Assembly: GCA_002009975.1 (NCBI GenBank)
Contig: MTLP01000009.1
Span: 71,396 to 135,395 of the forward strand
Origin: Thermococcus sp. JdFR-02
GTDB lineage: Archaea > Methanobacteriota_B > Thermococci > Thermococcales > Thermococcaceae
DNA: 64,000 bases
Direction of reading: 5' to 3'
Shown here: positions 19,399-52,846 of the stretch, in pieces
Position numbering within the stretch: the stretch's first letter is position 1
How the letters are laid out: the number at the start of each line of letters is the position of its first letter
Program-made: the position numbers and the translations under genes
The notes under the pieces: model-generated
The model's database searches: none
Told to the model about the DNA's origin: nothing
Seen by the model: the letters and a program-made list of their open reading frames with translations, nothing else

Positions 19399-19698
19399 GT
19401 GATTTTTGTGAATGAGCTTCAGAAAAAAGTTGATGAGCTTATAAAGGAGTTTGGAGGTTATTGGGAGCCTTTTGAAATGCTTGCTGCAGTTGTTGAAGAA
19501 CTTGGCGAGTTTAGCAGGGAAATGCTGAGATACGAAAATGTTAAAGAAAAAGGTAATAAGGAAAAGTTAGAAGAAGAATTTGGTGATCTGTTGTTCACCT
19601 TAGCATGCATAGCCAATTACTATGACCTCGACATGTACTCGACACTCAACAAGTCAATATCAAAATATTCCAATCGTGATAAGACACGGTGGATATAA
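19399..19698 (+). CDS. MazG-like nucleotide pyrophosphohydrolase
   Basis: EELGEF...EEEFGDLLF..IAN, RDKTRW. Confidence 0.87.
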   Translation: MIFVNELQKKVDELIKEFGGYWEPFEMLAAVVEELGEFSREMLRYENVKEKGNKEKLEEEFGDLLFTLACIANYYDLDMYSTLNKSISKYSNRDKTRWI

Positions 19699-25730: not shown

Positions 25731-26261
25731 CTATGAACATTGAATTTCTCCATCTTCGTTTCCTGTCCAAGAACAGCTATCTATCAAAGTACCATTTGAA
25801 GCATAAAGATATGCAGTATCTCCATTATTGTTCCATACAGGAGAACCTCGTCCCCAGTATAATTCCGTATCACTATTAGTTCCACTTCCTGTATGTACTG
25901 TTACAAGTTTTCCACCTTTTAGAACAAACTCAGGAAATACATAGGTATAACCTGTTTTATCTTTTAATTGCCATCCTAAAAGGTTCTCTTCTTTACATCC
26001 AAGATTCGCAATAATGACGTATTCATCGTTTAAATTAAGCCAATCATTTCCCTCAGCATCGTAATGTACGTAATATATTACTATTTCAGAAGTGCTATCA
26101 CAAAATTGTTTATCAATTTCGCTTGAAATTTCTTTTAAAAATTCACTAAATAGGTCATCATAATTTGAACTAACTCTAATCACGTGGTGGTATACAATGG
26201 AAGTTATAACTAAAACAATAATGCTCATAACAACATATTCGATAGGAGCCTGTCCTTTCAT
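25731..26261 (-). CDS. Class III signal peptide (pilin-like) protein with lamin-tail domain
   Basis: MKG|QAPIEY plus hydrophobic helix; LTD motifs NDEYVIIAN..LLGWQLKD..YVFP..VTVHTGSG..WGRGSPVWNNNGDTAYL; track ORF starts at 26282. Confidence 0.78.
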   Translation of the reverse strand: MKGQAPIEYVVMSIIVLVITSIVYHHVIRVSSNYDDLFSEFLKEISSEIDKQFCDSTSEIVIYYVHYDAEGNDWLNLNDEYVIIANLGCKEENLLGWQLKDKTGYTYVFPEFVLKGGKLVTVHTGSGTNSDTELYWGRGSPVWNNNGDTAYLYASNGTLIDSCSWTGNEDGEIQCS

Positions 26262-26369
26262 CGATAGAGAAGTACCTTGCATCTAAATTTAAGTTTTTCT
26301 TTGGATTAGCGTTCAAAAATGCTCATGAGAGGGTTTCCAAGATCTAAACAAAATGTACAAAAATGAGCA

Positions 26370-27813: not shown

Positions 27814-28221
27814 ATGATAATTCTCAGAGGAAGAAAAATTTCAAAAGGAAAGGCTAAGGGAGTTGCATTAGTTTCAAGAAAACCTCTCTCTTTCCTTGGC
27901 GGCGTTGATCCTAAAACCGGCGTTGTTAATGATTCAGAGAGTGATATAAAAGGAGAAAGTGTCAAAGACAAGATTTTGGTTTTTCCAAGAGGAAAAGGTT
28001 CTACTGTAGGTTCTTATGTGATTTATCAGCTTAAAAAAAATGGTGTTGCCCCTAAGGCAATAATTGTTGAAGACGCTGAAACTATAGTAGCTACCGGAGC
28101 CATTATTTCCGAAATTCCGATGGTGGATAAAATAGACATAAGTAAGATTAAAAGTGGTCAAATAATTGAAGTTGATGCTGATAAGGGTGTGGTGATTCTT
28201 CATGACAAGGGGAATTTATGA
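27814..28221 (+). CDS. Aconitase X swiveling subunit (phosphomevalonate dehydratase small subunit)
   Basis: LSFLGGVDPKTG, GKGSTVGSY; adjacent to large subunit. Confidence 0.88.
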   Translation: MIILRGRKISKGKAKGVALVSRKPLSFLGGVDPKTGVVNDSESDIKGESVKDKILVFPRGKGSTVGSYVIYQLKKNGVAPKAIIVEDAETIVATGAIISEIPMVDKIDISKIKSGQIIEVDADKGVVILHDKGNL

Positions 28222-29437
28222 GTGTATTAAATGCGGCTATAGAGAAACTAAGGACTCAAATGAAGCATTACTTGAAAATGCTTGTCCTGTTTGTAATGGA
28301 GACATGGTTTTAGTTAGCTTTGAGGTTAGAGAAGAAGAAACTGTTGAGGAAAAATATAGGATTGAGGAGGAAGTCTTGAATAAAGTTAAAGAGTTCTATG
28401 AAATAGGTGAAATTAAAGTCAAAGATAATGTAATAGCGATGGAAGTTATAACAATCAAGGAGTCTAATTTTGAGAAAGTTTTAGCTGAGTTTGAAAAAAT
28501 TGGTCACTGGGCAGCTTTAAAGAAGAGGAATGAAAAAATTGTGCTCTACTTATTCCCTGCTCAGCCAGCTAAAGAAGAAAATCCATTGATCGGAATTGCC
28601 TTGTTTATTGCAACAATTTTCAGCACACTTTTTGCTGGTTATGTGTTATCATTGGGATATATAGAAACGCTGGATGAGTTTAATCTGCCTGGAATAAGAA
28701 ACTTATACTTAAATGCAATTGCCTTCTCTATTAGTATTTTAGCCATACTGGGCACTCACGAAATGGGACATAAAATCGCAGCAACTATGCATAATGTTAA
28801 GTCAACTTTTCCCTATTTCATACCAGTTCCAACAATAATTGGCACTCTAGGGGCTGTAATAAGGATCAAATCCCCTATACCAACAAGGAACGCTGCTATT
28901 GATTTGGGCGTAAGTGGTCCAATTGCTGGATTTTTAGTTGCATTACCGGTTTCAATAATTGGACTAAAGCTTTCGGTAGTGGTTCCTCTTTCCTATGTAG
29001 TTCCAAAAGAAGGGGGCTTTTATTTTGGCACCAATTTGGTATTTCTAATCATTGAGAAATATCTTTTCAAAATTGGTGAAGATTCTCTTGTATTTTTACA
29101 TCCTGTTGCTATAGCTGGATGGGTTGGCATCTTAGTAACATTTTTGAATTTAATTCCAGCAGCTCAATTGGATGGTGGACATATAGCAAGGGCATTTCTC
29201 AATGAGAAAGTTCACTACTATTTAACTACTGGAATCGGATTCTCATTAATTGCATTGAGCTATCTATGGCCTGGATGGATTCTCTGGGGAATAATAATAT
29301 TGCTTATGGGAAGAGTTGGGAATCCTGGGGCATTGGATGAAGTTAGCCCAATCTCAACAAAGAGAAAGATACTTGCAATAATAGTTTTGTTGATATTTAT
29401 TCTTTCAGGAACTCCTGTGCCTATTTATACAAAATAA
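28202..29437 (+). CDS. Site-2 (M50) intramembrane protease with N-terminal Zn ribbon
   Basis: HEMGH, NLIPAAQLDGGH, CxxC...CxxC N-terminus. Confidence 0.9.
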   Translation: MTRGIYECIKCGYRETKDSNEALLENACPVCNGDMVLVSFEVREEETVEEKYRIEEEVLNKVKEFYEIGEIKVKDNVIAMEVITIKESNFEKVLAEFEKIGHWAALKKRNEKIVLYLFPAQPAKEENPLIGIALFIATIFSTLFAGYVLSLGYIETLDEFNLPGIRNLYLNAIAFSISILAILGTHEMGHKIAATMHNVKSTFPYFIPVPTIIGTLGAVIRIKSPIPTRNAAIDLGVSGPIAGFLVALPVSIIGLKLSVVVPLSYVVPKEGGFYFGTNLVFLIIEKYLFKIGEDSLVFLHPVAIAGWVGILVTFLNLIPAAQLDGGHIARAFLNEKVHYYLTTGIGFSLIALSYLWPGWILWGIIILLMGRVGNPGALDEVSPISTKRKILAIIVLLIFILSGTPVPIYTK

Positions 29438-30003
29438 TTCTTTTTCCGCTCTTTTAATATCTGTTCAATATCATAATAGATAGAATCTCTTGAAACTCCA
29501 AACACTCTTGCAACTTCAGAGATGTTTAAAACTTTGGGGTTATAGTTAAAGATAGATAATGTTTTTGATAATAGTTCTCTACGCTCCTTTATATCGAGCT
29601 CTGCAAGTTTTCTATCATTAGTCGGAACATTATATAAAACAACGCCAACAGCATAAGTTCTTCTTGTAACAGGGGTTGTATATGTAGCAATTTCAAAATC
29701 TACTATTTCTAGATTCTTTTTAAGTTCTTCATTAATTTCATCTTGCAATTTTTTTAATGCCCCTTCCTTACTTTTCCCAACTGCATATTCTATTATGGCT
29801 CCTTTTCTGCTTGGAGTTGTTTCATCAATTGCAATCACAATCTTTAAGCTTGCAAATGCGCCAAGACCAATTTCCACCTTTCCCTTTGATATCTTTCCAT
29901 GTTTTGATATAACTTCACTTTCAATTTTCTCTTTCATATGTCTGACACAATCTTCGACATTAACAGACTCGGAGTGAAGCACTATTATTTCCATGGATAT
30001 CAC
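29425..30003 (-). CDS. Hypothetical protein with C-terminal helix-turn-helix
   Basis: LNISEVARVFGVSRDSIYYDIEQI; RBS GGTGA. Confidence 0.72.
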   Translation of the reverse strand: MISMEIIVLHSESVNVEDCVRHMKEKIESEVISKHGKISKGKVEIGLGAFASLKIVIAIDETTPSRKGAIIEYAVGKSKEGALKKLQDEINEELKKNLEIVDFEIATYTTPVTRRTYAVGVVLYNVPTNDRKLAELDIKERRELLSKTLSIFNYNPKVLNISEVARVFGVSRDSIYYDIEQILKERKKNYFV

Positions 30004-30276: not shown

Positions 30277-30338
30277 GAGAAAAGTTTATTAATAATATAT
30301 TATAGAAAAATATGATACAATGTTACGGGGGTGTTTGT

Positions 30339-30518
30339 ATGAGGAGGGCTCAGGGTGCGGTTGAGTATTTGTTCATGGTAGCGGCTGTATTAATCATAGT
30401 AGCCATCGTAGTAAGATACCTAAGAAATGCTGCAAGCAGTGCTGGTGAAACAATTTCTAGCGGTGTTACTGAGTTAAGTAAGGAGTTAAGTGAGCAATTA
30501 AGCTCAGCAACAGGATGA
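30339..30518 (+). CDS. Class III signal peptide short pilin, copy 1 (59 aa)
   Basis: MRRA|QGAVEYLFMVAAVLIIVAIVV (Q+1/E+5); RBS GGGGTG; start fixed by alignment to copy 2. Confidence 0.88.
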   Translation: MRRAQGAVEYLFMVAAVLIIVAIVVRYLRNAASSAGETISSGVTELSKELSEQLSSATG

Positions 30519-30615
30519 ATCCTCTATTTTCAAGTTTGTTATTTTTAACTATTTCTTTTAACTTGATTATGGTAGTATAATTGTTTGTGATATACTCATT
30601 TTCTTTTAATCTTGT

Positions 30616-30627
30616 CTCAAATTTGCG
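30616..30627. promoter_or_regulatory. Semi-palindromic box upstream of pilin-2 TATA
   Basis: CTCAAATTTGCG, 8 nt before TATAAAAA. Confidence 0.55.
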
Positions 30628-30686
30628 TAAAAAACTATAAAAATCAGCTGAAACCAAAAGAATATTAAAGCATTGGAGGTGTTTGT

Positions 30687-30866
30687 ATGAGGAGGGCTCA
30701 GGGTGCGGTTGAGTATTTGTTCATGGTAGCGGCTGTATTAATCATAGTAGCCATCGTAGTAAGATACCTAAGAAGCTCCGCCAGCAGTGGGGGAGGAGCA
30801 ATTGAGAGCGGTGTTACTGAGTTAAGTAAGGAGTTAAGTGAGCAATTAAGCTCAGCAACAGGATGA
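30687..30866 (+). CDS. Class III signal peptide short pilin, copy 2 (59 aa); missing from ORF track
   Basis: MRRAQGAVEYLFMVAAVLIIVAIVVRYLRSSASSGGGAIESGVTELSKELSEQLSSATG; RBS GGAGGTG. Confidence 0.88.
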   Translation: MRRAQGAVEYLFMVAAVLIIVAIVVRYLRSSASSGGGAIESGVTELSKELSEQLSSATG

Positions 30867-30886
30867 AAGTGAACCTTAAATCTTTT

Positions 30887-33088
30887 TTAGTCTTTTAATA
30901 TGATACTCACAAAACCAAATGGTTTATTACTTTTCAATTTTATAATGTAGAAGGTATTTGATTTAAATGAATATTCAAAATTCTGTATTTCTTGTGTTAT
31001 TTCTCCAATGACATTTCCATTTATTGTAATTTGAATTGTTTGATTTTGTTCTGCAAGAAGAACTTTGAATATAATCTCATTGTACGATTTTGTAGGAACA
31101 AAGACAATATACCCCTGTCCATTAGGTGCTAATGCATAACTCCATCTATGTAGAAGTACTTCTCTTATTACAACAGGATTTTTAAGCACGAATCCATGTA
31201 TTAAATATTTCCAATCTTTAAAGTGTGTTGCAATAATTGTATTTTTTGGCAATTTGAAATGGGACATTACTTTGTTTATTAAATGCTGATCCGTTTTATC
31301 CCACTTCATTGATAAATCATAAATCCAAATATTTGATTCAAAGTATATTAATTTATACTTTCCAAGAAAATTAAGAGGATTCAGCGGAGATACTCTAAGA
31401 TCTCCAATTCCTCTCGAATCAATGTACAAAAGCACATCAGTAGTGGTCACATTTTTTTCATTAACAAATTCAATTTCTTTTAAGGTGAAGATTGGAATCC
31501 ACGCTCCGGAATCATGGAACTTCGTCACCAGTACTTTGTTAGTCGGATAAGTATTAATTAAGTCGAATATATTAAGGATTTTGCTATCTATTACACTTGC
31601 TTTTTCATTGGAATAATTAATTATGTTTACATAGAACATAGGAAGCACTAAACCGATAATAAGAATTGATGTTACTTTTTTTATGCCAATGATCTTCTTA
31701 ACATTTTCATAAATAATAGACGCACCAATACCTTGGAATATTGGAAGTATTGGTGTTAAAAGTAGATACACTCGCTCAGAATTCCAGATGGCGGAATAAT
31801 AGGGAATATTAACATGAAAATAAATCTTATTTAGGATTAGAAACAAAGCATAGATAATAGTTGTAAGTAGGGAGAAATAAGGTAATAAGTAGGTGTTATT
31901 GCTTTCCTTAACTAAGGGGTATAAGATGCCAACAAAAAAGGAAATTCCCAAAAATAGCTGTCCATTATAGATAAATGTATCTTTTAAGATTTCAAGAAAC
32001 CAGTGCATATTGTCCTTAAGTGCATACTTTGGAAAATTAGAGATAGGAGCGGAGTATGTGGACATATTAATGCTCATAGGGAATTCTAAAAGATAATAAA
32101 TCAAAAAACTTCCAAGAAGCTGTGTTACAAATATGCCAATATAAAAGCTTGCACTTTTTCTGTCCGTGAATGTGTATAAGAATGCAAGCATTATTGCATA
32201 TATCTGGAAAAGTAAATATGAATAAGGATGGACAATCAGCATACTAGTTACGGATAATAAGATCAAAAAAACATGATTATAACTTCTTTCATTTTGAAAT
32301 ATAAGGTTGTATAGAAAAATAGAAACTAGGAATAAATAATAATTAAAAAAAGCAGGAAGAAGAGGATAATTGAGATAGTAATAGTACAAATAAGAGAGTG
32401 GTGTTATTATTGTTGCGAATATTCCTGCATTTTTGTTAAAAATATTTTTAGTGACTAAATAGGTAGTTAATGGAAGGATAAACCAAATAAAGAGTTTTAA
32501 AATTAACATAGCTTGTCCGATATTATTTCTACCTACTAAACATATCCAAGCAATTATAGAATGATAACCTGCAGGATAAGTCTTTATTCTAGGATTTGCA
32601 TAATTCGGAATATTTTGTATAAACAGAGTATTCTCTTTTAAAATTTCTAAAACTTTATAAGCATGAAAGACTGGATCTTTATGTGCGTATGCAGGTATTT
32701 GTGCAAAAGGTATTTTAAGCCCAACAGCGAGAAATACTGCTAAAATTAGCCAAATAATAGTTATTTTGTCCAATTCTTTTAAATTGACCTTAATCTCTCT
32801 CTTTGATAAAATAACAGTCAAAATTGCCATTATTGTGTAAGAATGTTCTAAAGAAACATCTAACCAGCTTAGAATATGCATTAGAATGATCACAATCCCT
32901 AAACCAATTGCGGGGGCAATTGCTGCCTTTTCAATTAAATCGAAATCTTTGTTGCTAAGTATCAAAAATCCAAAATACCAAGGCAGGAGAAGAGATAAGT
33001 AAGGGCTTGATTTAGTAAGCAGTATTACTAGTATTGAAAATATTAAGAGCTTAATTCTAAGATTCAGTAAATTGGATTGTAATTTCAT
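30887..33088 (-). CDS. Polytopic membrane protein, probable GT-C glycosyltransferase (DUF6541-like)
   Basis: More than 12 TM segments; loop DPVFH...YPAGYH; DSGAWIP. Confidence 0.6.
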   Translation of the reverse strand: MKLQSNLLNLRIKLLIFSILVILLTKSSPYLSLLLPWYFGFLILSNKDFDLIEKAAIAPAIGLGIVIILMHILSWLDVSLEHSYTIMAILTVILSKREIKVNLKELDKITIIWLILAVFLAVGLKIPFAQIPAYAHKDPVFHAYKVLEILKENTLFIQNIPNYANPRIKTYPAGYHSIIAWICLVGRNNIGQAMLILKLFIWFILPLTTYLVTKNIFNKNAGIFATIITPLSYLYYYYLNYPLLPAFFNYYLFLVSIFLYNLIFQNERSYNHVFLILLSVTSMLIVHPYSYLLFQIYAIMLAFLYTFTDRKSASFYIGIFVTQLLGSFLIYYLLEFPMSINMSTYSAPISNFPKYALKDNMHWFLEILKDTFIYNGQLFLGISFFVGILYPLVKESNNTYLLPYFSLLTTIIYALFLILNKIYFHVNIPYYSAIWNSERVYLLLTPILPIFQGIGASIIYENVKKIIGIKKVTSILIIGLVLPMFYVNIINYSNEKASVIDSKILNIFDLINTYPTNKVLVTKFHDSGAWIPIFTLKEIEFVNEKNVTTTDVLLYIDSRGIGDLRVSPLNPLNFLGKYKLIYFESNIWIYDLSMKWDKTDQHLINKVMSHFKLPKNTIIATHFKDWKYLIHGFVLKNPVVIREVLLHRWSYALAPNGQGYIVFVPTKSYNEIIFKVLLAEQNQTIQITINGNVIGEITQEIQNFEYSFKSNTFYIIKLKSNKPFGFVSIILKD

Positions 33089-35315
33089 TAGAAATCACCG
33101 TTAATATTAATTTTGTATCTTTTTCTCTTGTTATGAATTTTCCAGAAATTTTAAGTGTACCTCCTTTTAGTGAGAACAGTCTTATAATGTTAACCTCATT
33201 TTTTGGTAATGTTATTATCGAATATAACTCTCCATCTAGTTCTATTATCTTGCTAACTCCTTCAAGCTCTATTACGAATTCTAAACCATTAGGAATGTTA
33301 TTTATTTTTATTTTGTTCCCGGTCTTATTTAGTCTTAATGCACTTATTTTTGAATCGTTTGAGTAAAACGTGAGATTGTACGTGTTATTGCTGATAAGGT
33401 AAATTCTACAACGTCTATTAAATATGACATTTCCAATTTGTGGGTAGATATTAATCAATTTGTAATCTTTGTTTAAGATTTCAAGTTTTCCCCACCAGCT
33501 GTGGAACGTCAATATTTTTGGCTTTGCTTCTTTTATGGAATATATCTCAATCACTTCTCCCTTTTTATTGTAGGAGTCTCCATAGAGTATTGAATAATTT
33601 GCTCTTAAATTTTGAATCAAATTCATGTATTCTCCTCTCAACTTATACTGGGAAACAAAAGCATAAGCCCACGTACTTACTATAATGTGATTAATGCCTT
33701 TTTCTTTAACCTTTTCAATAAGTTCTGAGGAGTTCATTCCATTTAGAATTAAACCAAAGTTATCAATATAATAAGGCACAGTGTCCAAGTTTAAATAAAA
33801 GTTATTCATTGGATTTATAGAGTATATTTTTCTCCCAAAATTGTTGCTATAAATATACTGTCTCAGATCTTCCCTTAGTTCTTTAGCATGAGGAGAGGAG
33901 GCTATTTTTAACTCTCCTTGTGGAGCCACAAAAGCAAGTGCATAATCTGCTATACCAAGGAAAAGTAGTACAGATACTGTTATTGCAAGAGCTTGTCTTC
34001 TGTTGAGATTCATTTTTGAAAAATAATATGCAGCCAGAATATATAAAACTAACAATGTGGCTGTTAGAAATCTCTCATTCACTATGGCAGGGGTTAGGAT
34101 ATATATAACGAGGCTAGTTAAGAACAAAAAGGATAGAGCATCTGTTATCTTGTCCTCTTTTACCTTAATCTCTTTTGAGAACTTGAAGAGAAGTATAAGG
34201 AGTATTAAAATAATTGTTAAATCAAATAATAAAAATTCAAGTTCGCTTGCTTGTACCTTGCTTAGTTTATCCCCTAAAAAGTCAAAGAAATTAAGAACCG
34301 GATTGTATCTTCCTCCCTGGATTCCATAAGTTTGGGTGATGTATGAAGGGCTTACAAGAATACCAAAGATACCCTCTATTAGAAGCTTTGGTAAAAGTAC
34401 AAAAAAACCAAGCTTTAATGGAATTTTAATATTTAAAGCTAGGATTTTTATAATTTTAAAAAGTTTATCAACATAAGAAATCTTGTAGACATATAAAATT
34501 AAAAATCCCCAGATCAGCAGAAAAATAGCTATTGGGACAATGTTTCCTACCACAGTTGCTTCGTGTAAAATTGGCACTATGAAAACTTTTCTAACGAACT
34601 CTGTTGGATAAAGTGAGACGGTAATAATCATTAGAATGGCTGTTGCAGTTAAGGAGAATAAAACGAAGAATACTTGTTTTTTGTTCAATACAACACCTAT
34701 CACATTTTTTACATAATTCCATAACTCTGGAAAGAGATAGAAGTTTATGGTTAGGAATAAACCTACTGTAAAAGGAATTGCAATAAACTTCACTGCTGTT
34801 GCAAATCCCGCAAAAAAGAGTGAATAATACGCATAAACCAGTTTGTTAGTTTTTACAAGCTTGATAAGATAGTAGATCGAAAGCAATACAAAAGGTTCCA
34901 TGATACTTTCAAACATTACTAAGGTGTTTACATGAACGAGATTTGGTTCAAGAGAGAGAATCAATGCAAGAAAGATGCCGAGTTTTTTATCTTTTAACTC
35001 TTTTCCAATATAGTATGCAATTAAAACTGACAGGGATCCAAAAAGTAATGACAATCCTCTACCAGCTATATAATTCATCCCAAAAATTCTAAGCCATAAA
35101 GCGAGCAGATAATAATAAAAGGGTGGGTGGACAGCAAAGATATCTCGATAAGGGAGATACCCTTGGTTGATTAGTCTAGCAATTAGAAGATATGTGCCCT
35201 CATCGTAATCCCAATATTCGTTCATTGGGGTTAATAGTGGAAGTCTAATTAATGTGTATAGGAGTAGAATAGCCCCAACACCGAGCAACTCCCATTTATT
35301 CTCTTTAATATCCAT
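33057..35315 (-). CDS. ArnT/PMT-like (GT39/GT83) GT-C glycosyltransferase
   Basis: DYDEGTY..IAR..GYLPYRDIFAVHPP.YYY, conserved R, E, KF, RF; C-terminal soluble domain. Confidence 0.82.
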   Translation of the reverse strand: MDIKENKWELLGVGAILLLYTLIRLPLLTPMNEYWDYDEGTYLLIARLINQGYLPYRDIFAVHPPFYYYLLALWLRIFGMNYIAGRGLSLLFGSLSVLIAYYIGKELKDKKLGIFLALILSLEPNLVHVNTLVMFESIMEPFVLLSIYYLIKLVKTNKLVYAYYSLFFAGFATAVKFIAIPFTVGLFLTINFYLFPELWNYVKNVIGVVLNKKQVFFVLFSLTATAILMIITVSLYPTEFVRKVFIVPILHEATVVGNIVPIAIFLLIWGFLILYVYKISYVDKLFKIIKILALNIKIPLKLGFFVLLPKLLIEGIFGILVSPSYITQTYGIQGGRYNPVLNFFDFLGDKLSKVQASELEFLLFDLTIILILLILLFKFSKEIKVKEDKITDALSFLFLTSLVIYILTPAIVNERFLTATLLVLYILAAYYFSKMNLNRRQALAITVSVLLFLGIADYALAFVAPQGELKIASSPHAKELREDLRQYIYSNNFGRKIYSINPMNNFYLNLDTVPYYIDNFGLILNGMNSSELIEKVKEKGINHIIVSTWAYAFVSQYKLRGEYMNLIQNLRANYSILYGDSYNKKGEVIEIYSIKEAKPKILTFHSWWGKLEILNKDYKLINIYPQIGNVIFNRRCRIYLISNNTYNLTFYSNDSKISALRLNKTGNKIKINNIPNGLEFVIELEGVSKIIELDGELYSIITLPKNEVNIIRLFSLKGGTLKISGKFITREKDTKLILTVISNEITIQFTES

Positions 35316-35319
35316 GCTT

Positions 35320-37554
35320 TCACCCCATAGAAAACTTAACTTCTTTTCCGTGAATTCTGATCTCTCTACCGGAGATTTTTGTAATTATTAAGTTCTCCCC
35401 ATCTATTTTTATTTTTTGGTCTCCAATGATAACAATCAAACTGTCAAATCTTCTTGTTTCTCCTGTTTTTATTAGTGTATTATCCTCATCAAGTAAGCTA
35501 ATATCGGTGAAAAACCTCAATGTAATAGAAAGTGGGTTTATAAATTCAAATTTTATCCCCTCTTTACTGAGTATGGCTGAGAATTCTATGCTATTTGCCT
35601 CATCGGAGTATTGAGTTATTTTATAGGTATCTTGTTCTATTTTAACGATTTTAGTCTTAAAGTTATAAGATATGTTGTTCTTATTTACAAAAAGCTCTCC
35701 AAGGGTTCCATTAAAAGAAAGCAACAGATTTCCAGAATATGATTTGATTTTTATTGGGAATAAGCTTTCTTCAAGTTTGTAAAGTTCAATAATATCTCCT
35801 ACCCGATATGCGCTTGCATATATGATAGTGTGGTTATTAAGCAAAGTCGTTGATATTGCCTTCAATCTTTCTCTTTGCTTTTGGCTTGACCAGACTATAT
35901 AGCACCAACTGCTGCAAATGAAATAATCAATATTTTCTTCCCTTAAAATGGAAAACAATGCAATTTCATTCATATCTTTAAGTACTATGAGTCCATAGAG
36001 GTCTAAGTATTTGGGCGTCGTATTTAGATTTAGATAATAAGTGTTCATAGGATTTGCAGAGTAGAATTTTCCCTCAATACCGCTCTCTTTTAGATAGATC
36101 GATAATTCATCTCGCAACTCTTTTGAATAACCACCATACTTTCGTATTATTGCTCTCTGCTTGGAATACCTGTATATAATCCCAAAATCAGCTATTGAAA
36201 GGAATAACACTCCAGCTAACACAAGAGCTATTGCCTGTTTTTTTGTTAATTTAACACTTAAAAGAAAGTCAAGCAGTATTAGGTACAAAATCACCCACAT
36301 TGGAATGAGGAACTTCTCAAATGGGACTATTGGGGCTATGAAGAAGTAAACAAAGAAGCTAACTAAAAAGAGGAGTGTTAATTTTTGCCGAATTGCACTT
36401 TTTTGAGAAGATATCTTAAACAAACTCACTATTAAAGTAAATAAGAGCAAAAGAAAGAGAGGAAACATAAAGAGTAAATCATCCAGTTCTCCAGAGGATA
36501 TATTGTGGATAATGCTTCCAATATACCAAAAGAGGTTAACTATTGGCAACATTCTTGTGCCTTGAATCAAATATGTTTGGCTGATATATTTGGGAGTTAT
36601 GAATAATCCGAAGAGTCCTTCTATAATAATTTTTGGTAAAAGTAAAATAGCGCCATATTTTAGGACTTCTTTGATATCCCTAATAATCAGAACTGCACTT
36701 TTTAAGAAGGTACTAATAAATCTTAATCTAAACAATATTGTAGTGAAGATGAGCCATATCAAAATTAAAAGAATGGAAGGCAAGATTTGGTAAAAATTAT
36801 CTAGTTCATAAAATCCGGGCACAACCATTATCTCTTTAGTTGCTTCTATTGGAAGTAAAATAAAAATAGAGGATGCAATCAAAATCATAAGAATATACGC
36901 TATCGTGATTACTTTTATTTGTTCTTTATTTAGCAGAATTTGCTTTGTTTTTGCTAAATATTCATGGAGTTTTTTACTTTTAAAAATAAGCAATGCCAGA
37001 TAAATGGAAATGGCATAGGGTATTATTGTAAATTTGACTGTAGAACCCAAACCGACTAAAAATAGAGAAAGGTATGCATATTTCTCTTTTGTTGTTTTTA
37101 GGTACTTAATGAAATAATAGAGCGAAAAAAGAACAAAAAACTCTATGAAAGTTTCTTGAACTGCTAAGAAATTTGTAAAAAGTAAAATGGGATTCATGGC
37201 TAAAAATCCGGCGAATATTATTCCCAATTTCTCGTTTTTTACTTCTCTTCCAATATAATAGGCGAGTATTAAGGAGACGAACCCTAAGGATACTGAGAAC
37301 AATCGTCCGCTGATATAATTGTCTCCGAATAATCTAAATATCAATGCTAGAATATAGTAATACAAAGGCGGATGAACGGCAAAGATGTCCCGATAGGGGA
37401 GATACCCTTGGTTGATTAGTCTAGCAATTAGAAGATATGTGCCCTCATCGTAATCTACATTTTCATCGAAATTATGTAAAACTAAATATGTTCGCGTAAA
37501 TAAGTAGAATAGGATTATAACAAGGAATGCAATAATAACTTTTCTATTTTTCAC
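35320..37554 (-). CDS. ArnT/PMT-like (GT39/GT83) GT-C glycosyltransferase, paralog
   Basis: Same DYDEGTY...HPP motif and topology as neighbour. Confidence 0.82.
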   Translation of the reverse strand: MKNRKVIIAFLVIILFYLFTRTYLVLHNFDENVDYDEGTYLLIARLINQGYLPYRDIFAVHPPLYYYILALIFRLFGDNYISGRLFSVSLGFVSLILAYYIGREVKNEKLGIIFAGFLAMNPILLFTNFLAVQETFIEFFVLFSLYYFIKYLKTTKEKYAYLSLFLVGLGSTVKFTIIPYAISIYLALLIFKSKKLHEYLAKTKQILLNKEQIKVITIAYILMILIASSIFILLPIEATKEIMVVPGFYELDNFYQILPSILLILIWLIFTTILFRLRFISTFLKSAVLIIRDIKEVLKYGAILLLPKIIIEGLFGLFITPKYISQTYLIQGTRMLPIVNLFWYIGSIIHNISSGELDDLLFMFPLFLLLLFTLIVSLFKISSQKSAIRQKLTLLFLVSFFVYFFIAPIVPFEKFLIPMWVILYLILLDFLLSVKLTKKQAIALVLAGVLFLSIADFGIIYRYSKQRAIIRKYGGYSKELRDELSIYLKESGIEGKFYSANPMNTYYLNLNTTPKYLDLYGLIVLKDMNEIALFSILREENIDYFICSSWCYIVWSSQKQRERLKAISTTLLNNHTIIYASAYRVGDIIELYKLEESLFPIKIKSYSGNLLLSFNGTLGELFVNKNNISYNFKTKIVKIEQDTYKITQYSDEANSIEFSAILSKEGIKFEFINPLSITLRFFTDISLLDEDNTLIKTGETRRFDSLIVIIGDQKIKIDGENLIITKISGREIRIHGKEVKFSMG

Positions 37555-37584
37555 CTCTCATCACCTAGGAAGGAGATTTAAGTG

Positions 37585-37878
37585 TTATACCTCTTCCTCA
37601 CACTCACAGGGATTCTTTCTACAGTATGGGCATTTATTGGAATATTTCTTTAGGACAGCTTCCTCTAAATCAATTTCAAGAATATTAGCTAAGCTTACAA
37701 GCCAAGCAAAAACATCTGCAAACTCTTCCTCTAAGGAATCAATATCACCTTTCCTCAAACCTTCGGCTAATTCTCCAACTTCTTCAACAAGCCATAAGAA
37801 AGTTTTCTCGGCACCTCTCTTTGAGTCTCTGTGATAATAAATATTTCTTATCATCTTCTGAAACTCTTTTATATGCAT
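37585..37878 (-). CDS. MazG-like nucleotide pyrophosphohydrolase
   Basis: EEVGELAE..EEEFADVFAWL.SLAN; C-terminal CPYC..PCEC. Confidence 0.88.
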   Translation of the reverse strand: MHIKEFQKMIRNIYYHRDSKRGAEKTFLWLVEEVGELAEGLRKGDIDSLEEEFADVFAWLVSLANILEIDLEEAVLKKYSNKCPYCRKNPCECEEEV

Positions 37879-38060: not shown

Positions 38061-38297
38061 ATGTTTGAAGGAGTAGTTCTTTTGGTTTTGCTTGTGCTGG
38101 CTGGCTATCTTGTAATGAAATTAACCCTTGCAATACTTAAGTGGCTTGCAATTAATACCATAACTGGTTTAATCTTAGTAGGAATTCTAAATTTCCTTGG
38201 AATAACTCACATAGAGCTTAACTTGATTAACTTTTTGATTATTGCTGTTGGCGGTGTTGTAGGTGTTTTTATCTTGATAATACTGTCATTTCTTTAA
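38061..38297 (+). CDS. BofA-family small membrane protein
   Basis: AINTITGLILVGILN...IIAVGGVVG. Confidence 0.72.
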   Translation: MFEGVVLLVLLVLAGYLVMKLTLAILKWLAINTITGLILVGILNFLGITHIELNLINFLIIAVGGVVGVFILIILSFL

Positions 38298-41080: not shown

Positions 41081-42371
41081 CTTTTTCTTTCTTCAAGCTT
41101 TGTTCTTTAGGGCGGGATACAATGTTTGAAAATTCGGCCATTGAGCAGGAAAGTGATACCATTTTAAAGTCTAAAACTCATACCATACTTTGAGATGAAG
41201 CGTTCGGTAACGGTCAAACTCCAGCCCTCGAAAGAGCAGGAGAAAAACCTCTTCGAGTTAGCCCAAGCAACGGCAATAATCTGGAATAAAATTAACTACG
41301 AGAGGCTCAAACAGTTCAAAGAATTCGGCAAAATAGACTTTAATGGAACGGAAAAGGAAGCTTATCACGCCTTCAAAAACTGGGTTGGAGGCTCAACTGT
41401 TCAACAATTAGCCAGAAAAAACGCTGAAGCGTGGAGGAGCTTCTTCGCCCTCAGCAGGAAGAAAAAGTCTAAGGAACTTCCTGAATGGTTCAAACCAAAA
41501 CCACCGAAATTCATCAGAGAGAAAAACGGGAGAAAACTGTTCATCATTTCCCTCAGGAATGACCAGTACAGGATTAAGGGCAACGTTCTTGAACTGAGAA
41601 GACTCGGAAAGTTCGGGAAGTTGGAAATTCAATTCAAAGGAAGAATACACTTGAGAGGCAAGCAAGGGCGGTTAGAAATAACTTACGATGAGGTAAAGCG
41701 TAAATGGTATGCTCACATCAGCTTTACAGTGGAGGAGAAGCTTGACGGCAGGAAGTTAGTTAAACTTCCAAGGAAACCAAAGGGTGACCTTTCAGCGGGA
41801 ATAGACTTGGGGGTAAACAACCTTATGGCCGTTTACGTGGAAAATGGGGAAAGCTTTCTCGTGAACGGGAGGCCTTTGAAATCAATAGCCTTCTACTGGC
41901 AGAAAAGGATTGGGGAGTATCAGTCGAGGCTGAATAAATCTGGAGCTAAAACGAGCAGGAAGCTCAAGATAATGCACGAGAGGGCAAAACTACAGGCGAA
42001 ACATTACATCAATACTGTTGTGAGACAGGCGGTTATGAGACTTTACGAGCTTGGAGTTTCCAGAATCGTCGTCGGCTATCCTAAGGGTATTAGCAGAAAC
42101 TCCGATAAGGGGAGAAAGCAGAATTACCTACTCTCCCACGTCTGGCGGTTTAATTATGTTATCAAACGTTTGACTGAAGTTGCTGAGGAGTATGGTATTG
42201 AAGTTGTCGTGGTTGATGAGGCTTTTACTTCTCAGTCTTGTCCCCTCTGTGGCCAACGCCATTCTAATGGTAGAATTTCTCGTGGTTTGTTTGAGTGCCA
42301 CGGGGAGGGTGTTGTCATGAATGCTGACTTGGTTGGTGCCTTTAACATCTTGAAAAAGGCTGTAAAAACGA

Positions 42372-44493
<2,122 letters not shown>

Positions 44494-44581: not shown

Positions 44582-44869
44582 ATGATTAGGGTTGGAGAAC
44601 ACAAAGCAAAGAAGGGGTTAATAAGGTTTGAGATTGAAGAAGAGAACAGAATCGCAAAGAGCGTTAAGATTAGTGGTGATTTCTTTATCTATCCAGAGGA
44701 AACTATAAGTGAATTAGAAAAAGCTTTGGAAGGTAAGAAACTCGATGAACTGGAAAATGCAATCGATGAATTCTTTGCTCTGAGGCTTGATGTTGAAATG
44801 CCCTATATCAATGTGGAAGACTTTAAAATTGCTCTCAAAAATGCTTTGAGGGAAGAAGATGAGAAGTAG
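44582..44869 (+). CDS. Stand-alone lipoate-protein ligase C-terminal domain
   Basis: KAKKGLIR...VKISGDFFIYPEE.I.ELEKALEG. Confidence 0.82.
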   Translation: MIRVGEHKAKKGLIRFEIEEENRIAKSVKISGDFFIYPEETISELEKALEGKKLDELENAIDEFFALRLDVEMPYINVEDFKIALKNALREEDEK

Positions 44870-45416
44870 GCTTTTTCTCGCTTTACTTGGAGTCTTTTTA
44901 ATAGGTGTTGCTGTGGGAATTATATTTACGCTTGTAAATCCTCAATTTGCAGAGAACTTATTTACCAATTTGAAGCAGGTGTTTGGACAAAAATTTGGAA
45001 CCGGCACATTCAACAGCTTTAAAATGTTTTGGATAATCTTCTTGAATAACTCAAGGGTTGCAGTATTAGCGGCTTTTGGAGGGATTTTATTTGGTATAGT
45101 TCCTATCGGAATACTCTTTTTTAATGGCTTTATAGTTGGCATTGTAGTTGAGTACCACTACCTCCAAGGACTGTCCATATCAAAGATCATCCTCTCAATA
45201 GTGCCTCATGGAATAGTTGAGATACCCGCTTTTGCCCTCGCTTCCCTTGGTGGGATTGAGTGGTATATGGAGATCATTAAAGGAGAAGGAAGTATAGGAG
45301 AGCGCTTTAAAGCAGGCTTCAAAAAAGCTATGAGAATGCTTGCATTTTCACTTGTTCTTCTATTAATAGCCGCTTTCATAGAAGCATTTATAACTCCAAA
45401 ATTAGCAGGGATTTAG
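44859..45416 (+). CDS. SpoIIM-family membrane protein
   Basis: IFLNN, NGFIVG, PHGIVEIPA, AAFIEAFITP. Confidence 0.85.
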   Translation: MRSRLFLALLGVFLIGVAVGIIFTLVNPQFAENLFTNLKQVFGQKFGTGTFNSFKMFWIIFLNNSRVAVLAAFGGILFGIVPIGILFFNGFIVGIVVEYHYLQGLSISKIILSIVPHGIVEIPAFALASLGGIEWYMEIIKGEGSIGERFKAGFKKAMRMLAFSLVLLLIAAFIEAFITPKLAGI

Positions 45417-51799: not shown

Positions 51800-52846
51800 A
51801 TGTTGCTTGAAATTGGTTTGGTAATAATCCTCCTCTGGGATGGTTATTTTTTCTTCAATTACATAATTAGCCTGTTAAAGCCTCTAAAGACCCAAGAATG
51901 GAAGCCCTTTGTGAGTGTTTTAATTCCCGCTTATAACGAAGAGAAGAGCATTAAAGAAACTATAAAATCTGTTTTAGCTCAAGATTATGAAAATCTTGAG
52001 GTTATTGTGATAGATGATGGAAGCAAAGATAAAACCTTCGAGGTTGCTAAATCCATAAAGGATCATCGTCTGAGGATTTTTAGAAAAGAACATGAAGGAA
52101 AATCCAAAGCTTTGAATTTTGGACTTTCAAAAGCTAAAGGTGAAATAATAGTAACGACTGATGCAGATACATTATTAGATAATTCAGCAGTTAATGAATT
52201 AGTTAGACGATTTTATAATGATGTAGTAGCTGTTGGGGGGCAAGTTAGGGTTTTAGGGAAAAGCTTCCTCGAAAGAGCACAAGACATTGAGCATCTAAGA
52301 ATCGCCATGTTTAGAAGGGCAAAAGAGCTTGAAGATTTAAGCGTAGCTCCCGGACCAATAAGTGCATTTAGAAAGGAGGTATTAATAAAAGCAGGCGGCT
52401 TTGTGGAAAGTATAGTTGAAGATTACGCAACGACGAAGGAGGTTAGAAAGTTTGGGAAAGTCGTTTATTCGCCAAAAGCTAAAGCTTTTACACAGATGCA
52501 TCTAAGCTTGAAAAACCTTTGGAAGCAGAGAAAAAGATGGTTCTTAGGTGATTTAGAACATTTAGGTGGAGGATTTGAAAAGGAATGGTTTTTCCTATTG
52601 TTGGGTGACTTCATAGCATTTTTGGACTTGATTGTTCCAATTTTGCTGATTTTAAATGCAAAGTGGTTTTTATTGACCTTATTTTTGATCTTTGAAATCG
52701 TGACTATGATTATTCCAACCCTAATAGAAGGAGGGGGCATCTTAAATGCTTTAGCTTTTCCATTATTTTTGTATTTTTGGGCTGGGTTTTATTTGATGTT
52801 GCATTTTTATGGCTACATGACAAAACTTAAGGTAAAGATGACCTAA
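51800..52846 (+). CDS. GT2 family glycosyltransferase (processive-type motifs)
   Basis: IPAYNEE, DDGSKD, GKSKALN, DAD, VED, QRKRW; TM helices. Confidence 0.9.
   Translation: MLLEIGLVIILLWDGYFFFNYIISLLKPLKTQEWKPFVSVLIPAYNEEKSIKETIKSVLAQDYENLEVIVIDDGSKDKTFEVAKSIKDHRLRIFRKEHEGKSKALNFGLSKAKGEIIVTTDADTLLDNSAVNELVRRFYNDVVAVGGQVRVLGKSFLERAQDIEHLRIAMFRRAKELEDLSVAPGPISAFRKEVLIKAGGFVESIVEDYATTKEVRKFGKVVYSPKAKAFTQMHLSLKNLWKQRKRWFLGDLEHLGGGFEKEWFFLLLGDFIAFLDLIVPILLILNAKWFLLTLFLIFEIVTMIIPTLIEGGGILNALAFPLFLYFWAGFYLMLHFYGYMTKLKVKMT

Follow-up and report, generated by a model that had tools for sequence, protein, structure and literature searches.

In Pseudomonas aeruginosa, the GT-C glycosyltransferase TfpW is encoded beside pilA, and its glycans sit on Ser/Thr residues. 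TfpW is described as adding D-arabinofuranose oligomers to the group IV pilin (bioRxiv 10.1101/2020.04.19.049825), and glycosylation of bacterial pilins is reported to protect against pilus-specific phages (bioRxiv 10.1101/150227). The archaeal pilin EpdE (MMP1685), the major pilin of the Methanococcus maripaludis Epd pilus, is characterised as a glycoprotein of 6.4 kDa in its mature form, whose Gln at position +1 is needed by a dedicated peptidase and which carries an N-linked pentasaccharide at about three N-x-S/T sequons, added via AglB (PMC4390842). Its gene is reported to lie away from the pilus operon, as do those of other predicted major pilins (PMC4858521), and an Epd-type pilus system is attributed to the Thermococcales (PMC13705601, PMC4858521). 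Here we analyze a stretch of 64,000 nucleotides (nt) of Thermococcus sp. JdFR-02 (contig MTLP01000009.1), hereafter the window, whose positions give the coordinates below. It contains two tandem genes for pilins of 59 amino acids (aa) beside three genes for large GT-C membrane enzymes. Across the Thermococcaceae, this pilin tends to lack sequons where such enzymes are encoded next to it.

The acceptors of protein O-mannosyltransferases (PMTs) are described as Ser/Thr-rich stretches and the donor as dolichyl-phosphate mannose, Dol-P-Man (PMC12586580, PMC12705809). In archaea, protein O-glycosylation is reported as observed, with a pathway that is 'still elusive' (PMC8241124). The searched text of two surveys of archaeal type IV filaments does not mention glycosyl- or oligosaccharyltransferases beside Thermococcales pilins (PMC4858521, PMC13705601). 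A full-text search, with subscription-only papers and supplements outside its scope, found no literature linking Thermococcales pilins to GT-C enzymes and no mention of DUF6541, DUF2079 or TERMP_00882-TERMP_00884. The GT-C enzymes described here form two uncharacterised families restricted to the Thermococcaceae. We regard the module that they constitute as a new archaeal variant of pilin-dedicated glycosylation, the chemistry of which we infer below.

The two 59-aa genes stand in tandem on the plus strand and are followed by the three large genes on the minus strand. A 192-aa gene (hyp192) and a MazG-like gene flank the group:

29425-30003, minus strand: 192-aa protein (hyp192), no clear family, weak DUF7720 match
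30339-30518, plus strand: pilin 1, 59 aa, PF04021 at 38.6 bits (cut-off 23.7)
30687-30866, plus strand: pilin 2, 59 aa, PF04021 at 38.6 bits; tandem duplicate of pilin 1, protein 90% identical
30426-30458 (pilin 1) and 30774-30806 (pilin 2), plus strand: variable cassette, residues N30-S40, defined by comparing the repeats
30887-33088, minus strand: DUF6541 GT-C enzyme, 733 aa, PF20176 at 36.8 bits (cut-off 29)
33057-35315, minus strand: PMT_2 paralogue B, 752 aa, PF13231 at 63.9 bits (cut-off 26.1)
35320-37554, minus strand: PMT_2 paralogue C, 744 aa, PF13231 at 69.9 bits (cut-off 26.1)
37585-37878, minus strand: MazG-like gene, 97 aa, bordering the GT-C block

All three large genes have intact open reading frames. 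The 733-aa and 752-aa genes overlap by 32 nt, the 752-aa and 744-aa genes are separated by 4 nt, and the 733-aa gene converges on pilin 2 with 20 nt from stop to stop. An initial annotation of this DNA had described a tight unit of three polytopic GT-C genes ending 20 nt from the pilin-2 stop; coordinates, Pfam matches and AlphaFold2 (AF2) folds agree with it. Its end coordinate, 37878, includes the MazG-like gene, which does not travel with the module in relatives. A scan for a terminator between the convergent pilin 2 and 733-aa genes found none. The same annotation called the unit AT-rich. The GC content is indeed 0.295-0.321, against about 0.35-0.40 in the flanks. GC at third codon positions (GC3) is 0.26-0.32 in the GT-C genes and 0.23-0.38 in the other window genes (n=18), and the deficit is confined to codon positions 1 and 2. 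We therefore attribute the AT-richness to the amino-acid composition of membrane proteins rich in Ile, Leu, Phe, Tyr, Lys and Asn. Horizontal transfer as the source of the low GC was rejected, because GC3 lies within the range of the other window genes.

Both pilins begin with MRRA-QGAVEYLF. The class III signal peptide places Gln at +1 and Glu at +5; behind it come a hydrophobic helix and a tail of 31 residues. We read these 59-aa proteins as short archaeal type IV pilins of the Epd/Flp type, and the analogy with EpdE (PMC4390842) suggests that cleavage would take place after MRRA. The sequence GG(A/G)GGTGTTTGT lies immediately 5' of the ATG of MRRAQG in both copies, so that a longer pilin 1 frame starting at 30312 is unlikely. 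As the initial annotation had noted, the tails are rich in Ser/Thr and free of sequons: in each pilin Ser and Thr make up 11 of the 31 tail residues, and the number of N-x-S/T sequons is 0. The two genes form a 193-nt direct repeat with 93% identity, and 13 of the 13 nucleotide differences fall within about 33 nt, corresponding to N30-S40. In this cassette six codons differ non-synonymously and two synonymously, and the positions of Ser/Thr are moved, which bears out the earlier description of a variable cassette that shifts them.

The pilins share with EpdE the size class and Gln +1, and those of relatives lacking GT-C genes, with 1-3 sequons, resemble EpdE; the window pilins differ in being sequon-free and having GT-C neighbours. 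The nearest known counterpart of the proposed module is bacterial, TfpW as described: it is dedicated to a pilin, with a periplasmic loop 1, a large periplasmic C-terminal domain and a lipid-carrier-linked sugar made in the cytoplasm (bioRxiv 10.1101/2020.04.19.049825). In both cases the trait is strain-variable. As in systems of the TfpW/TfpO type, the transferase gene adjoins the pilin gene (20 nt apart here, and adjacent in 44/44 other anchored genomes with the enzyme), but here the two are convergent. The substrate of TfpW is a type IVa pilin of bacteria that has a globular head; the mature pilins here would be about 55 aa long. A proline-rich motif shared with Emb proteins is named for TfpW (bioRxiv 10.1101/2020.04.19.049825). 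The Thermococcaceae loci have 1-4 opposite-strand GT-C genes of the PMT_2, STT3-like DUF6541 and DUF2079 types, and the likeness to TfpW is drawn from descriptions, not from sequences.

Pilin sequons and GT-C genes across the Thermococcaceae

All 97 sampled genomes of the family (97/97) encode a homologue of the pilin. As anchor for the locus we chose hyp192, because it is single-copy (one match at E<=1e-10 in 91/97 genomes) and always divergent from the pilin, upstream of which it lies in the anchored loci. Anchored loci were fetched from 87 genomes; 85 of them and the window, 86 loci in all, were analyzed. Two genomes (G077 and G079) were dropped, as their hyp192 frame is broken and the locus cannot be anchored. 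Ten genomes were left out, six of them without a hyp192 match at E<=1e-10 (G036, G062, G064, G087, G094, G096) and four with the match at a contig end (G069, G088, G091) or with no region taken (G088). For G054 and G059 the contig stops short of the pilin, and six loci with less than 1500 nt past the anchor and no GT-C match are not classifiable. Doubtful GT-C-free slots were checked with Pfam. On this basis, the slot behind the pilin holds 1-4 GT-C genes in 45 of the 86 loci and none in 33, while 8 are unclassifiable. In the 45 positive loci, all GT-C genes are on the strand opposite the pilin. Local profiles detect a PMT_2 enzyme of about 740 aa in 45/45 of them, a DUF6541 enzyme in 28/45 and a DUF2079 protein in 14/45.

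Strong matches to the 744-aa enzyme (E<1e-40) are present in 45 other genomes of the family and matches to the DUF6541 enzyme in 31. The initial annotation had proposed conservation of the neighbourhood across archaea as a check. Within the family this is borne out, with pilin and GT-C genes adjacent in 44/44 other genomes that have both the enzyme and the hyp192 anchor. In 133 genomes of the phylum searched with the PMT_2 profile, full-length matches are confined to the window's own family. A word-based search for the enzyme gave 65 matches, and the names given are nearly all Thermococcus, Palaeococcus and Pyrococcus, with one 'MAG: Thermotogae bacterium'. Homologues are named in the cultured Thermococcus barophilus MP, Pyrococcus furiosus DSM 3638 and Pyrococcus abyssi; genetic systems exist for T. 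barophilus MP and P. furiosus DSM 3638.

The frame of the locus runs from AcnX, the AcnX swivel protein, the M50 protease and hyp192, through pilin 1 (often with pilin 2) and the variable slot, to an optional MazG gene, a HEAT-like 190-aa gene, the BofA-like gene, aRF1, DHDPS and ArgRS. In the genus g3 both flanks differ, yet the block MazG-DUF6541-PMT_2-pilin-hyp192 is intact, and the sole g3 genome lacking GT-C genes shows a clean gap where they would lie. MazG borders the GT-C block in g1, g2, g3 and g6, not in g4. We considered MazG as a member of the module and rejected it, as it is absent from most GT-C-positive g4 loci and kept in the GT-C-negative locus of G092. In some relatives the slot also encodes a short PMT_2 protein, pairs a UbiA prenyltransferase gene with one for a radical SAM enzyme, or combines a methyltransferase with a small GT2 protein. 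The slot of relative G089 contains a Wzx-like flippase, two GT2 genes and one GT4 gene. A TnpB copy, 80% identical to the one in the window described below, also lies inside the pilin/GT-C slot of G089 (L013:2130-3434).

The sequon count at each locus covers N-x-S/T, where x is any residue but Pro, in the tail of the first pilin to follow the anchor. In GT-C-positive loci the first short pilin has no sequon in 30/45 cases, one in 8/45 and two in 7/45. In GT-C-negative loci it is never sequon-free (0/19); one such pilin has one sequon, 10 have two and 8 have three. The fraction of Ser/Thr outside sequons is 0.30 in GT-C-positive and 0.18 in GT-C-negative loci. Independent pairs were drawn from a tree built on hyp192 and aRF1, on which the GT-C state requires a minimum of 9 changes, counting well-supported branches, to 12. 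In 9 independent pairs, freedom from sequons goes with GT-C genes in 6.2, the opposite is seen in 0.1 and there is no difference in 2.7 (median two-sided sign-test p 0.031). With short pilins alone, 8 independent pairs divide 5.9 to 0.0 (p 0.031).

The sequons arise within homologous tails of close relatives. The tails of G093, which has GT-C genes, and G092, which has none, align along their length, and Ser positions in the former stand against N-x-S/T in the latter. The same pilin occurs either with sequons and without GT-C genes or with GT-C genes and without sequons, which makes the family a natural experiment. A replication set came from 52 metagenome loci found via the anchor, excluding those in which hyp192 is >=99% identical to that of a counted genome or in which <1500 nt are visible without a GT-C match. 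Among the new loci, 5/6 GT-C-positive and 0/5 GT-C-negative ones are sequon-free. One new positive, from a lineage nearest g5, has a short sequon-free pilin and three GT-C genes.

As a specificity control we used a different, 50-aa pilin, encoded in this genome beside the prepilin peptidase, sampled in 11 GT-C-positive and 9 GT-C-negative genomes. This pilin has at least one sequon in 8/11 of the former and 9/9 of the latter; the three exceptions are one lineage with identical sequences. Among the nine sampled genomes whose GT-linked pilin is sequon-free, the control pilin carries at least one sequon in six, the window's genome included. By these comparative data the GT-C enzymes are tied to the adjacent pilin more firmly than by adjacency alone.

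In g5 and part of g4 (L010, L027, L028, L052, L054, L061 and others), the short pilins are replaced by long ones, whose mature form has 115-160 aa and includes a globular part with Cys. GT-C genes are found in 0/14 classifiable long-pilin loci. This long-pilin, GT-C-free arrangement is a third state of the locus.

Folds and motifs of the GT-C enzymes

The three large proteins are GT-C glycosyltransferases, as judged from structural models for the 744-aa and 733-aa enzymes and from its 37% identity to the 744-aa paralogue for the 752-aa enzyme. The initial annotation had pointed to enzymes of the PMT/ArnT type, which fits the 752-aa and 744-aa proteins, both PMT_2; the 733-aa protein is instead a DUF6541 enzyme that resembles STT3/AglB. 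The Foldseek comparison that it had suggested, made with the 744-aa and 733-aa models, returns GT-C enzymes as top matches for both; by VIA-align the first is nearest to PMT and the second to STT3/AglB. The conserved acidic residues of the PMT_2 and DUF6541 enzymes are predicted, from the models and the basic N-terminus, to lie at the outer face of the membrane. In public databases, homologues of the PMT_2 enzymes are annotated as 'glycosyltransferase family 39 protein' or 'ArnT family glycosyltransferase'.

The AF2 model of the 744-aa enzyme has a predicted local distance difference test score (pLDDT) of 91.1. It consists of a helical membrane domain up to about residue 464 and a C-terminal part (about 475-744) made of an alpha/beta domain followed by a beta-sandwich. 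In a Foldseek search of the PDB, GT-C enzymes alone are matched at E<0.001. VIA-align gives Z 24-25 for Pmt4 and Pmt1-Pmt2 (up to 24.9), with about 350 aligned residues and a root-mean-square deviation (rmsd) of about 4, and lower values, Z about 22, for STT3, ALG12 and ArnT. In the model, then, the fold is closest to that of the protein O-mannosyltransferases. The loop 1 motif D34-Y-D-E-G-T-Y40 is invariant in 49/49 homologues of the family profile, and DYDEGTY is also present in the translation of the 752-aa enzyme.

The likeness to PMTs, which belong to GT39 and occur in fungi, animals and actinobacteria, thus comprises the best structural match of the 744-aa enzyme, a PMT_2 match above cut-off and an invariant acidic motif in loop 1. 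The enzyme differs from PMTs in lacking the MIR domain, a lumenal beta-trefoil between membrane helices: no MIR family is found among the Pfam matches of the window proteins, and the AF2 model shows nothing but helices up to residue 464, after which come the C-terminal alpha/beta domain and beta-sandwich. It differs also in that the window's PMT_2 family is restricted to the Thermococcaceae. PF02366 (PMT) is not reported for the window proteins at E<=0.01, and is precomputed for many homologues. Searched against PDB sequences, the PMT_2 family profile matched no solved structure and no PMT. TIGR03663, the archaeal Agl23 model, matches the window enzymes weakly, at 31.6 and 57.5 bits, below its cut-off of 126. 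A prediction of the complex between the 744-aa enzyme and pilin 2, both entered as alignments, scored 0.00 with controls not run, which speaks neither for nor against binding.

For the 733-aa DUF6541 protein the AF2 model has a pLDDT of 89.9, and its top PDB matches are all GT-C enzymes. In VIA-align, STT3 ranks first with Z 26.7 (455 aligned residues, rmsd 5.2), followed by AglB with 23-25, ArnT with 20.6 and PMT with about 19. The last 120 residues resemble CBM6 modules and form a beta-sandwich (1gmm, E 3.6e-3). Compared by hhalign with the AglB-like protein of its own genome, a profile of 28 homologues gives a probability of 87%, E 3.9e-6, over 357 columns, the template being a single sequence. 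In the first external loop (EL1), DUF6541 proteins have the motif D-x-x-[FY]-H, of which D138 and H142 are invariant in 28/28 homologues; D138-x-x-F-H142 aligns with Y-D-E-Y-L-H of the AglB-like protein. After the last membrane helix they have x-x-D-S-[GAS]-x-W where the AglB-like protein has WWDVG. PF02516 has no match in the 733-aa protein, and both Trp residues of WWDYG are replaced by variable residues.

From the fold ranking, the hhalign match and the alignment of motifs, we regard the DUF6541 enzyme as a remote relative of STT3/AglB that lacks both Trp residues: by model and profile comparison, it shares the STT3/AglB fold and a detectable remote homology. It has equivalents of the D-x-x-[FL]-H loop motif and of D-[SV]-G after the last membrane helix. 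It differs from AglB/STT3 in having no PF02516 match, no WWDYG Trp pair and a CBM6-like C-terminus, and in occurring where the neighbouring pilin lacks sequons. The DUF6541 family profile matched nothing among PDB sequences. Against PMT_2, hhalign gives a probability of 8.7%, with no relation detectable at the profile level. The enzyme may serve as an accessory transferase or chain extender, and the CBM6-like domain would fit a glycan-recognising enzyme.

In public runs the locus is found in a strain that has diverged by about 5%. Contigs labelled as metatranscriptome, 90-99% identical, cover 30/30 bins in run X5 and 24/30 in X9; contigs of this kind cannot tell RNA from carried-over DNA. In X9 a single contig runs from the end of pilin 2 directly into the 3' portion of the 752-aa gene (window 30867 to 33243), and 210 other letters replace the 2375 nt that hold the DUF6541 gene. 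This contig, from one run, may come from a co-occurring strain variant without the DUF6541 gene.

A proposed pilin glycosylation route and its alternatives

With GT-C genes present, sequons tend to be absent from the pilin tail, which has a higher content of Ser/Thr. This is most simply explained if the GT-C module supplies pilin glycans independently of sequons. We propose a glycosylation module that would be dedicated to the pilin, would need no sequon, would probably be O-linked to Ser/Thr, and would alternate in evolution with N-glycosylation by AglB, a reading drawn from sequences and models that we hold at about even confidence. We favour linkage to Ser/Thr because the core enzyme resembles the PMTs, which use Dol-P-Man to mannosylate stretches rich in Ser/Thr. 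The initial annotation had suggested an O-glycosylation module that decorates variable pilins. Dedication to the pilin is strongly supported by comparison, through the inverse relation to sequons and the conserved place beside the pilin; the O-linkage is our probable reading.

The scheme we envisage takes the pilin as acceptor and supposes the following linkage, donor, sequence of events and advantage to the cell. Once the pilin is inserted into the membrane and its class III signal peptide is cleaved off, about 30 residues rich in Ser/Thr would be exposed outside the cell. At the outer face of the membrane, the PMT_2 enzymes of about 740 aa would use a dolichyl-phosphate donor to place a sugar on Ser/Thr residues in the tail, with no N-x-S/T needed. 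The second PMT_2 paralogue and the DUF6541 enzyme, with its CBM6-like domain, would add further sugars or a second glycan, and the decorated pilin would be built into pili by machinery encoded elsewhere in the genome. Within the Thermococcaceae the module would alternate with N-glycosylation of this pilin by AglB. Differences in enzyme content and in the pilin cassette might diversify the pilus surface, for example against pilus-binding viruses.

Several points weigh against this proposal. Fifteen of the 45 GT-C-positive loci keep 1-2 sequons, including 8/9 GT-C-positive g3 genomes, so that N-glycosylation and the GT-C system are not mutually exclusive. The Ser/Thr excess divides the independent pairs 4.7 to 0.3 (p 0.125) and is not significant alone. 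The control pilin has a mean of 1.0 sequons in GT-C-positive and 1.7 in GT-C-negative genomes, and three genomes of one lineage have none. Adjacency by itself is weak evidence, because the surrounding region, from AcnX past aRF1 to ArgRS, is largely syntenic in the family; the pilin and GT-C genes are moreover convergent and not co-transcribed. The enzyme family is confined to one archaeal family, with no replicate obtained in another lineage. Among the Pfam matches of the window proteins, neither a Dol-P-sugar synthase nor a flippase is found in the module of this genome. Lipids and glycans are further substrates of PMT_2/ArnT-type enzymes, and their fold does not fix the acceptor.

The gene structure, the GT-C folds and motifs, the conserved position and the inverse relation to sequons are observed, and other explanations have to be set against them. 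The GT-C genes could be a strain-variable surface-glycan island that serves another acceptor, such as the S-layer glycoprotein, an N-glycan elaborated at the outer face in the manner of AglS, or a lipoglycan, and that occupies a permissive slot beside the pilins. The slot does lie in a family-syntenic region and varies in content, with insertions of TnpB, radical SAM, UbiA and methyltransferase genes, and the GT-C genes, convergent with the pilins, share no operon with them. The acceptors of PMT_2-type enzymes are diverse, AglS being an archaeal PMT-like Dol-P-Man transferase that acts on N-glycans; the window enzymes match TIGR03663 weakly, and the carbohydrate-binding-like domain of DUF6541 suggests a glycan acceptor. 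An island of this kind nevertheless leaves unexplained why the pilin is sequon-free with it and carries sequons without it, in 8-9 independent contrasts and in the new contigs, and why an unlinked pilin mostly keeps its sequons. Nor does it account for the g3 block, which stays together though both flanks differ, and we consider it rather unlikely. The relation to sequons could also reflect linked inheritance, in which two old haplotypes, one sequon-free with GT-C genes and one sequon-bearing without them, were swapped by recombination with no functional dependence. Surface loci are often exchanged between strains, and the tree was built from genes flanking the locus, on which recombination of the cassette alone would be invisible. 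Yet GT-C-negative pilins resemble those of positive close relatives and differ mainly by substitutions that create N-x-S/T (G092/G093, G026/G014, G044/G022), which argues for change in place rather than replacement of haplotypes. Both pilin sequence classes are found with and without GT-C genes, and persistent linkage would itself suggest co-adaptation. We regard unlinked function behind such haplotypes as very improbable.

Another reading keeps the pilin as target and changes the chemistry: the DUF6541 or PMT_2 enzyme would transfer a pre-assembled, lipid-linked oligosaccharide en bloc, either to Ser/Thr, as an O-oligosaccharyltransferase does, or to some non-canonical residue. The fold of DUF6541 is closest to STT3/AglB (Z 26.7, against 20.6 for ArnT), it aligns with the genome's own AglB-like protein (hhalign 87%), and the DxG core of WWDYG is kept with both Trp replaced; the Trp residues of WWDYG read the +2 Ser/Thr of the sequon. 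The flippase, two GT2 genes and GT4 gene in the G089 slot are also a gene set for assembling an oligosaccharide in the cytoplasm and flipping it. However, DUF6541 is missing from 17/45 positive loci, in all 45 of which PMT_2 is present, this genome's module includes neither a flippase nor a cytoplasmic glycosyltransferase, and the hhalign probability is moderate with a single-sequence template. En-bloc transfer seems unlikely.

The proposal of a pilin-dedicated, sequon-independent module can be carried further. The pilins may switch between an AglB route that reads sequons and a route encoded at the locus, and the PMT_2 enzymes would then be the first identified archaeal protein O-glycosyltransferases. 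The DUF6541 enzyme, acting on the same pilin, would be an AglB/STT3 descendant that has moved past sequon reading (WWDYG to xxDSGxW). The recurrent gain and loss of the module, the mix of GT-C enzymes and the hypervariable cassette would be traces of an arms race over the pilus surface, probably with pilus-binding viruses. We offer this wider picture tentatively and find it somewhat doubtful as a whole. In any case, the locus provides a defined candidate pair of enzyme and substrate and a testable entry to archaeal O-glycosylation. If the proposal is right, it would bring the first archaeal protein O-glycosyltransferases, an STT3 relative turned to a new use, and an archaeal counterpart of bacterial pilin glycosylation as surface variation or virus defence.

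Other genes of the genome and the window

Pilus assembly machinery that may serve the window pilins and a prepilin peptidase are encoded in this genome outside the window; no pilus assembly genes are found in its 64 kb. T2SSE-type ATPase matches lie on three other contigs (C29, C2 and C20), and the A24 prepilin peptidase is at C20:12625-12981, beside the 50-aa pilin used as control. The AglB-like protein has 814 aa and the motif WWDVG (contig C8, L161:1459-3903, minus strand); it extends about 400 residues past its STT3-like part. Contig C1 has a frame of 959 aa that matches PMT_2 weakly and may encode another, longer AglB.

The initial annotation had named wecC, wecB, DUF354 and a GT2 gene further along as possible suppliers of donors. 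We rejected them as dedicated donor genes, because they are core genes: wecC, wecB and DUF354 stand at the same syntenic position in GT-C-negative loci too, and the GT2 gene (51800-52846) is found in 95/97 genomes. They may supply sugars to any pathway. No cytoplasmic glycosyltransferase is found in this genome's module.

Next to the pilins, hyp192 ends in an invariant, helix-turn-helix-like C-terminus, LNISE.AR.FGVSRDSIYYDI, and is a candidate regulator of the pilin locus. The remaining window genes are Thermococcaceae housekeeping genes, such as aRF1, ArgRS, MetRS and HerA-Mre11-Rad50-NurA. An M50 site-2-type protease (28202-29437, plus strand), a BofA-like small membrane protein (38061-38297, plus strand) and a SpoIIM-like protein (44859-45416, plus strand) flank the pilin locus family-wide. 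In Bacillus, BofA is an inhibitor of an M50 protease, and by analogy the M50 protease and the BofA-like protein could be an archaeal pair for regulated intramembrane proteolysis.

An IS605-type TnpB gene (OrfB_IS605 with a Cas12f-like TNB domain) lies at 41195-42469 on the plus strand, between a 140-aa gene and ArgRS. Two small MazG-like pyrophosphohydrolase genes are present in the window, one of 99 aa at 19399-19698 (plus strand) and the 97-aa gene at 37585-37878 (minus strand) that borders the GT-C block. A lamin-tail-domain protein of 183 aa (25731-26282, minus strand), whose N-terminus matches the class III signal peptide weakly (16.2 bits, below cut-off), is conserved near the locus in several relatives and may be secreted and pilin-like.

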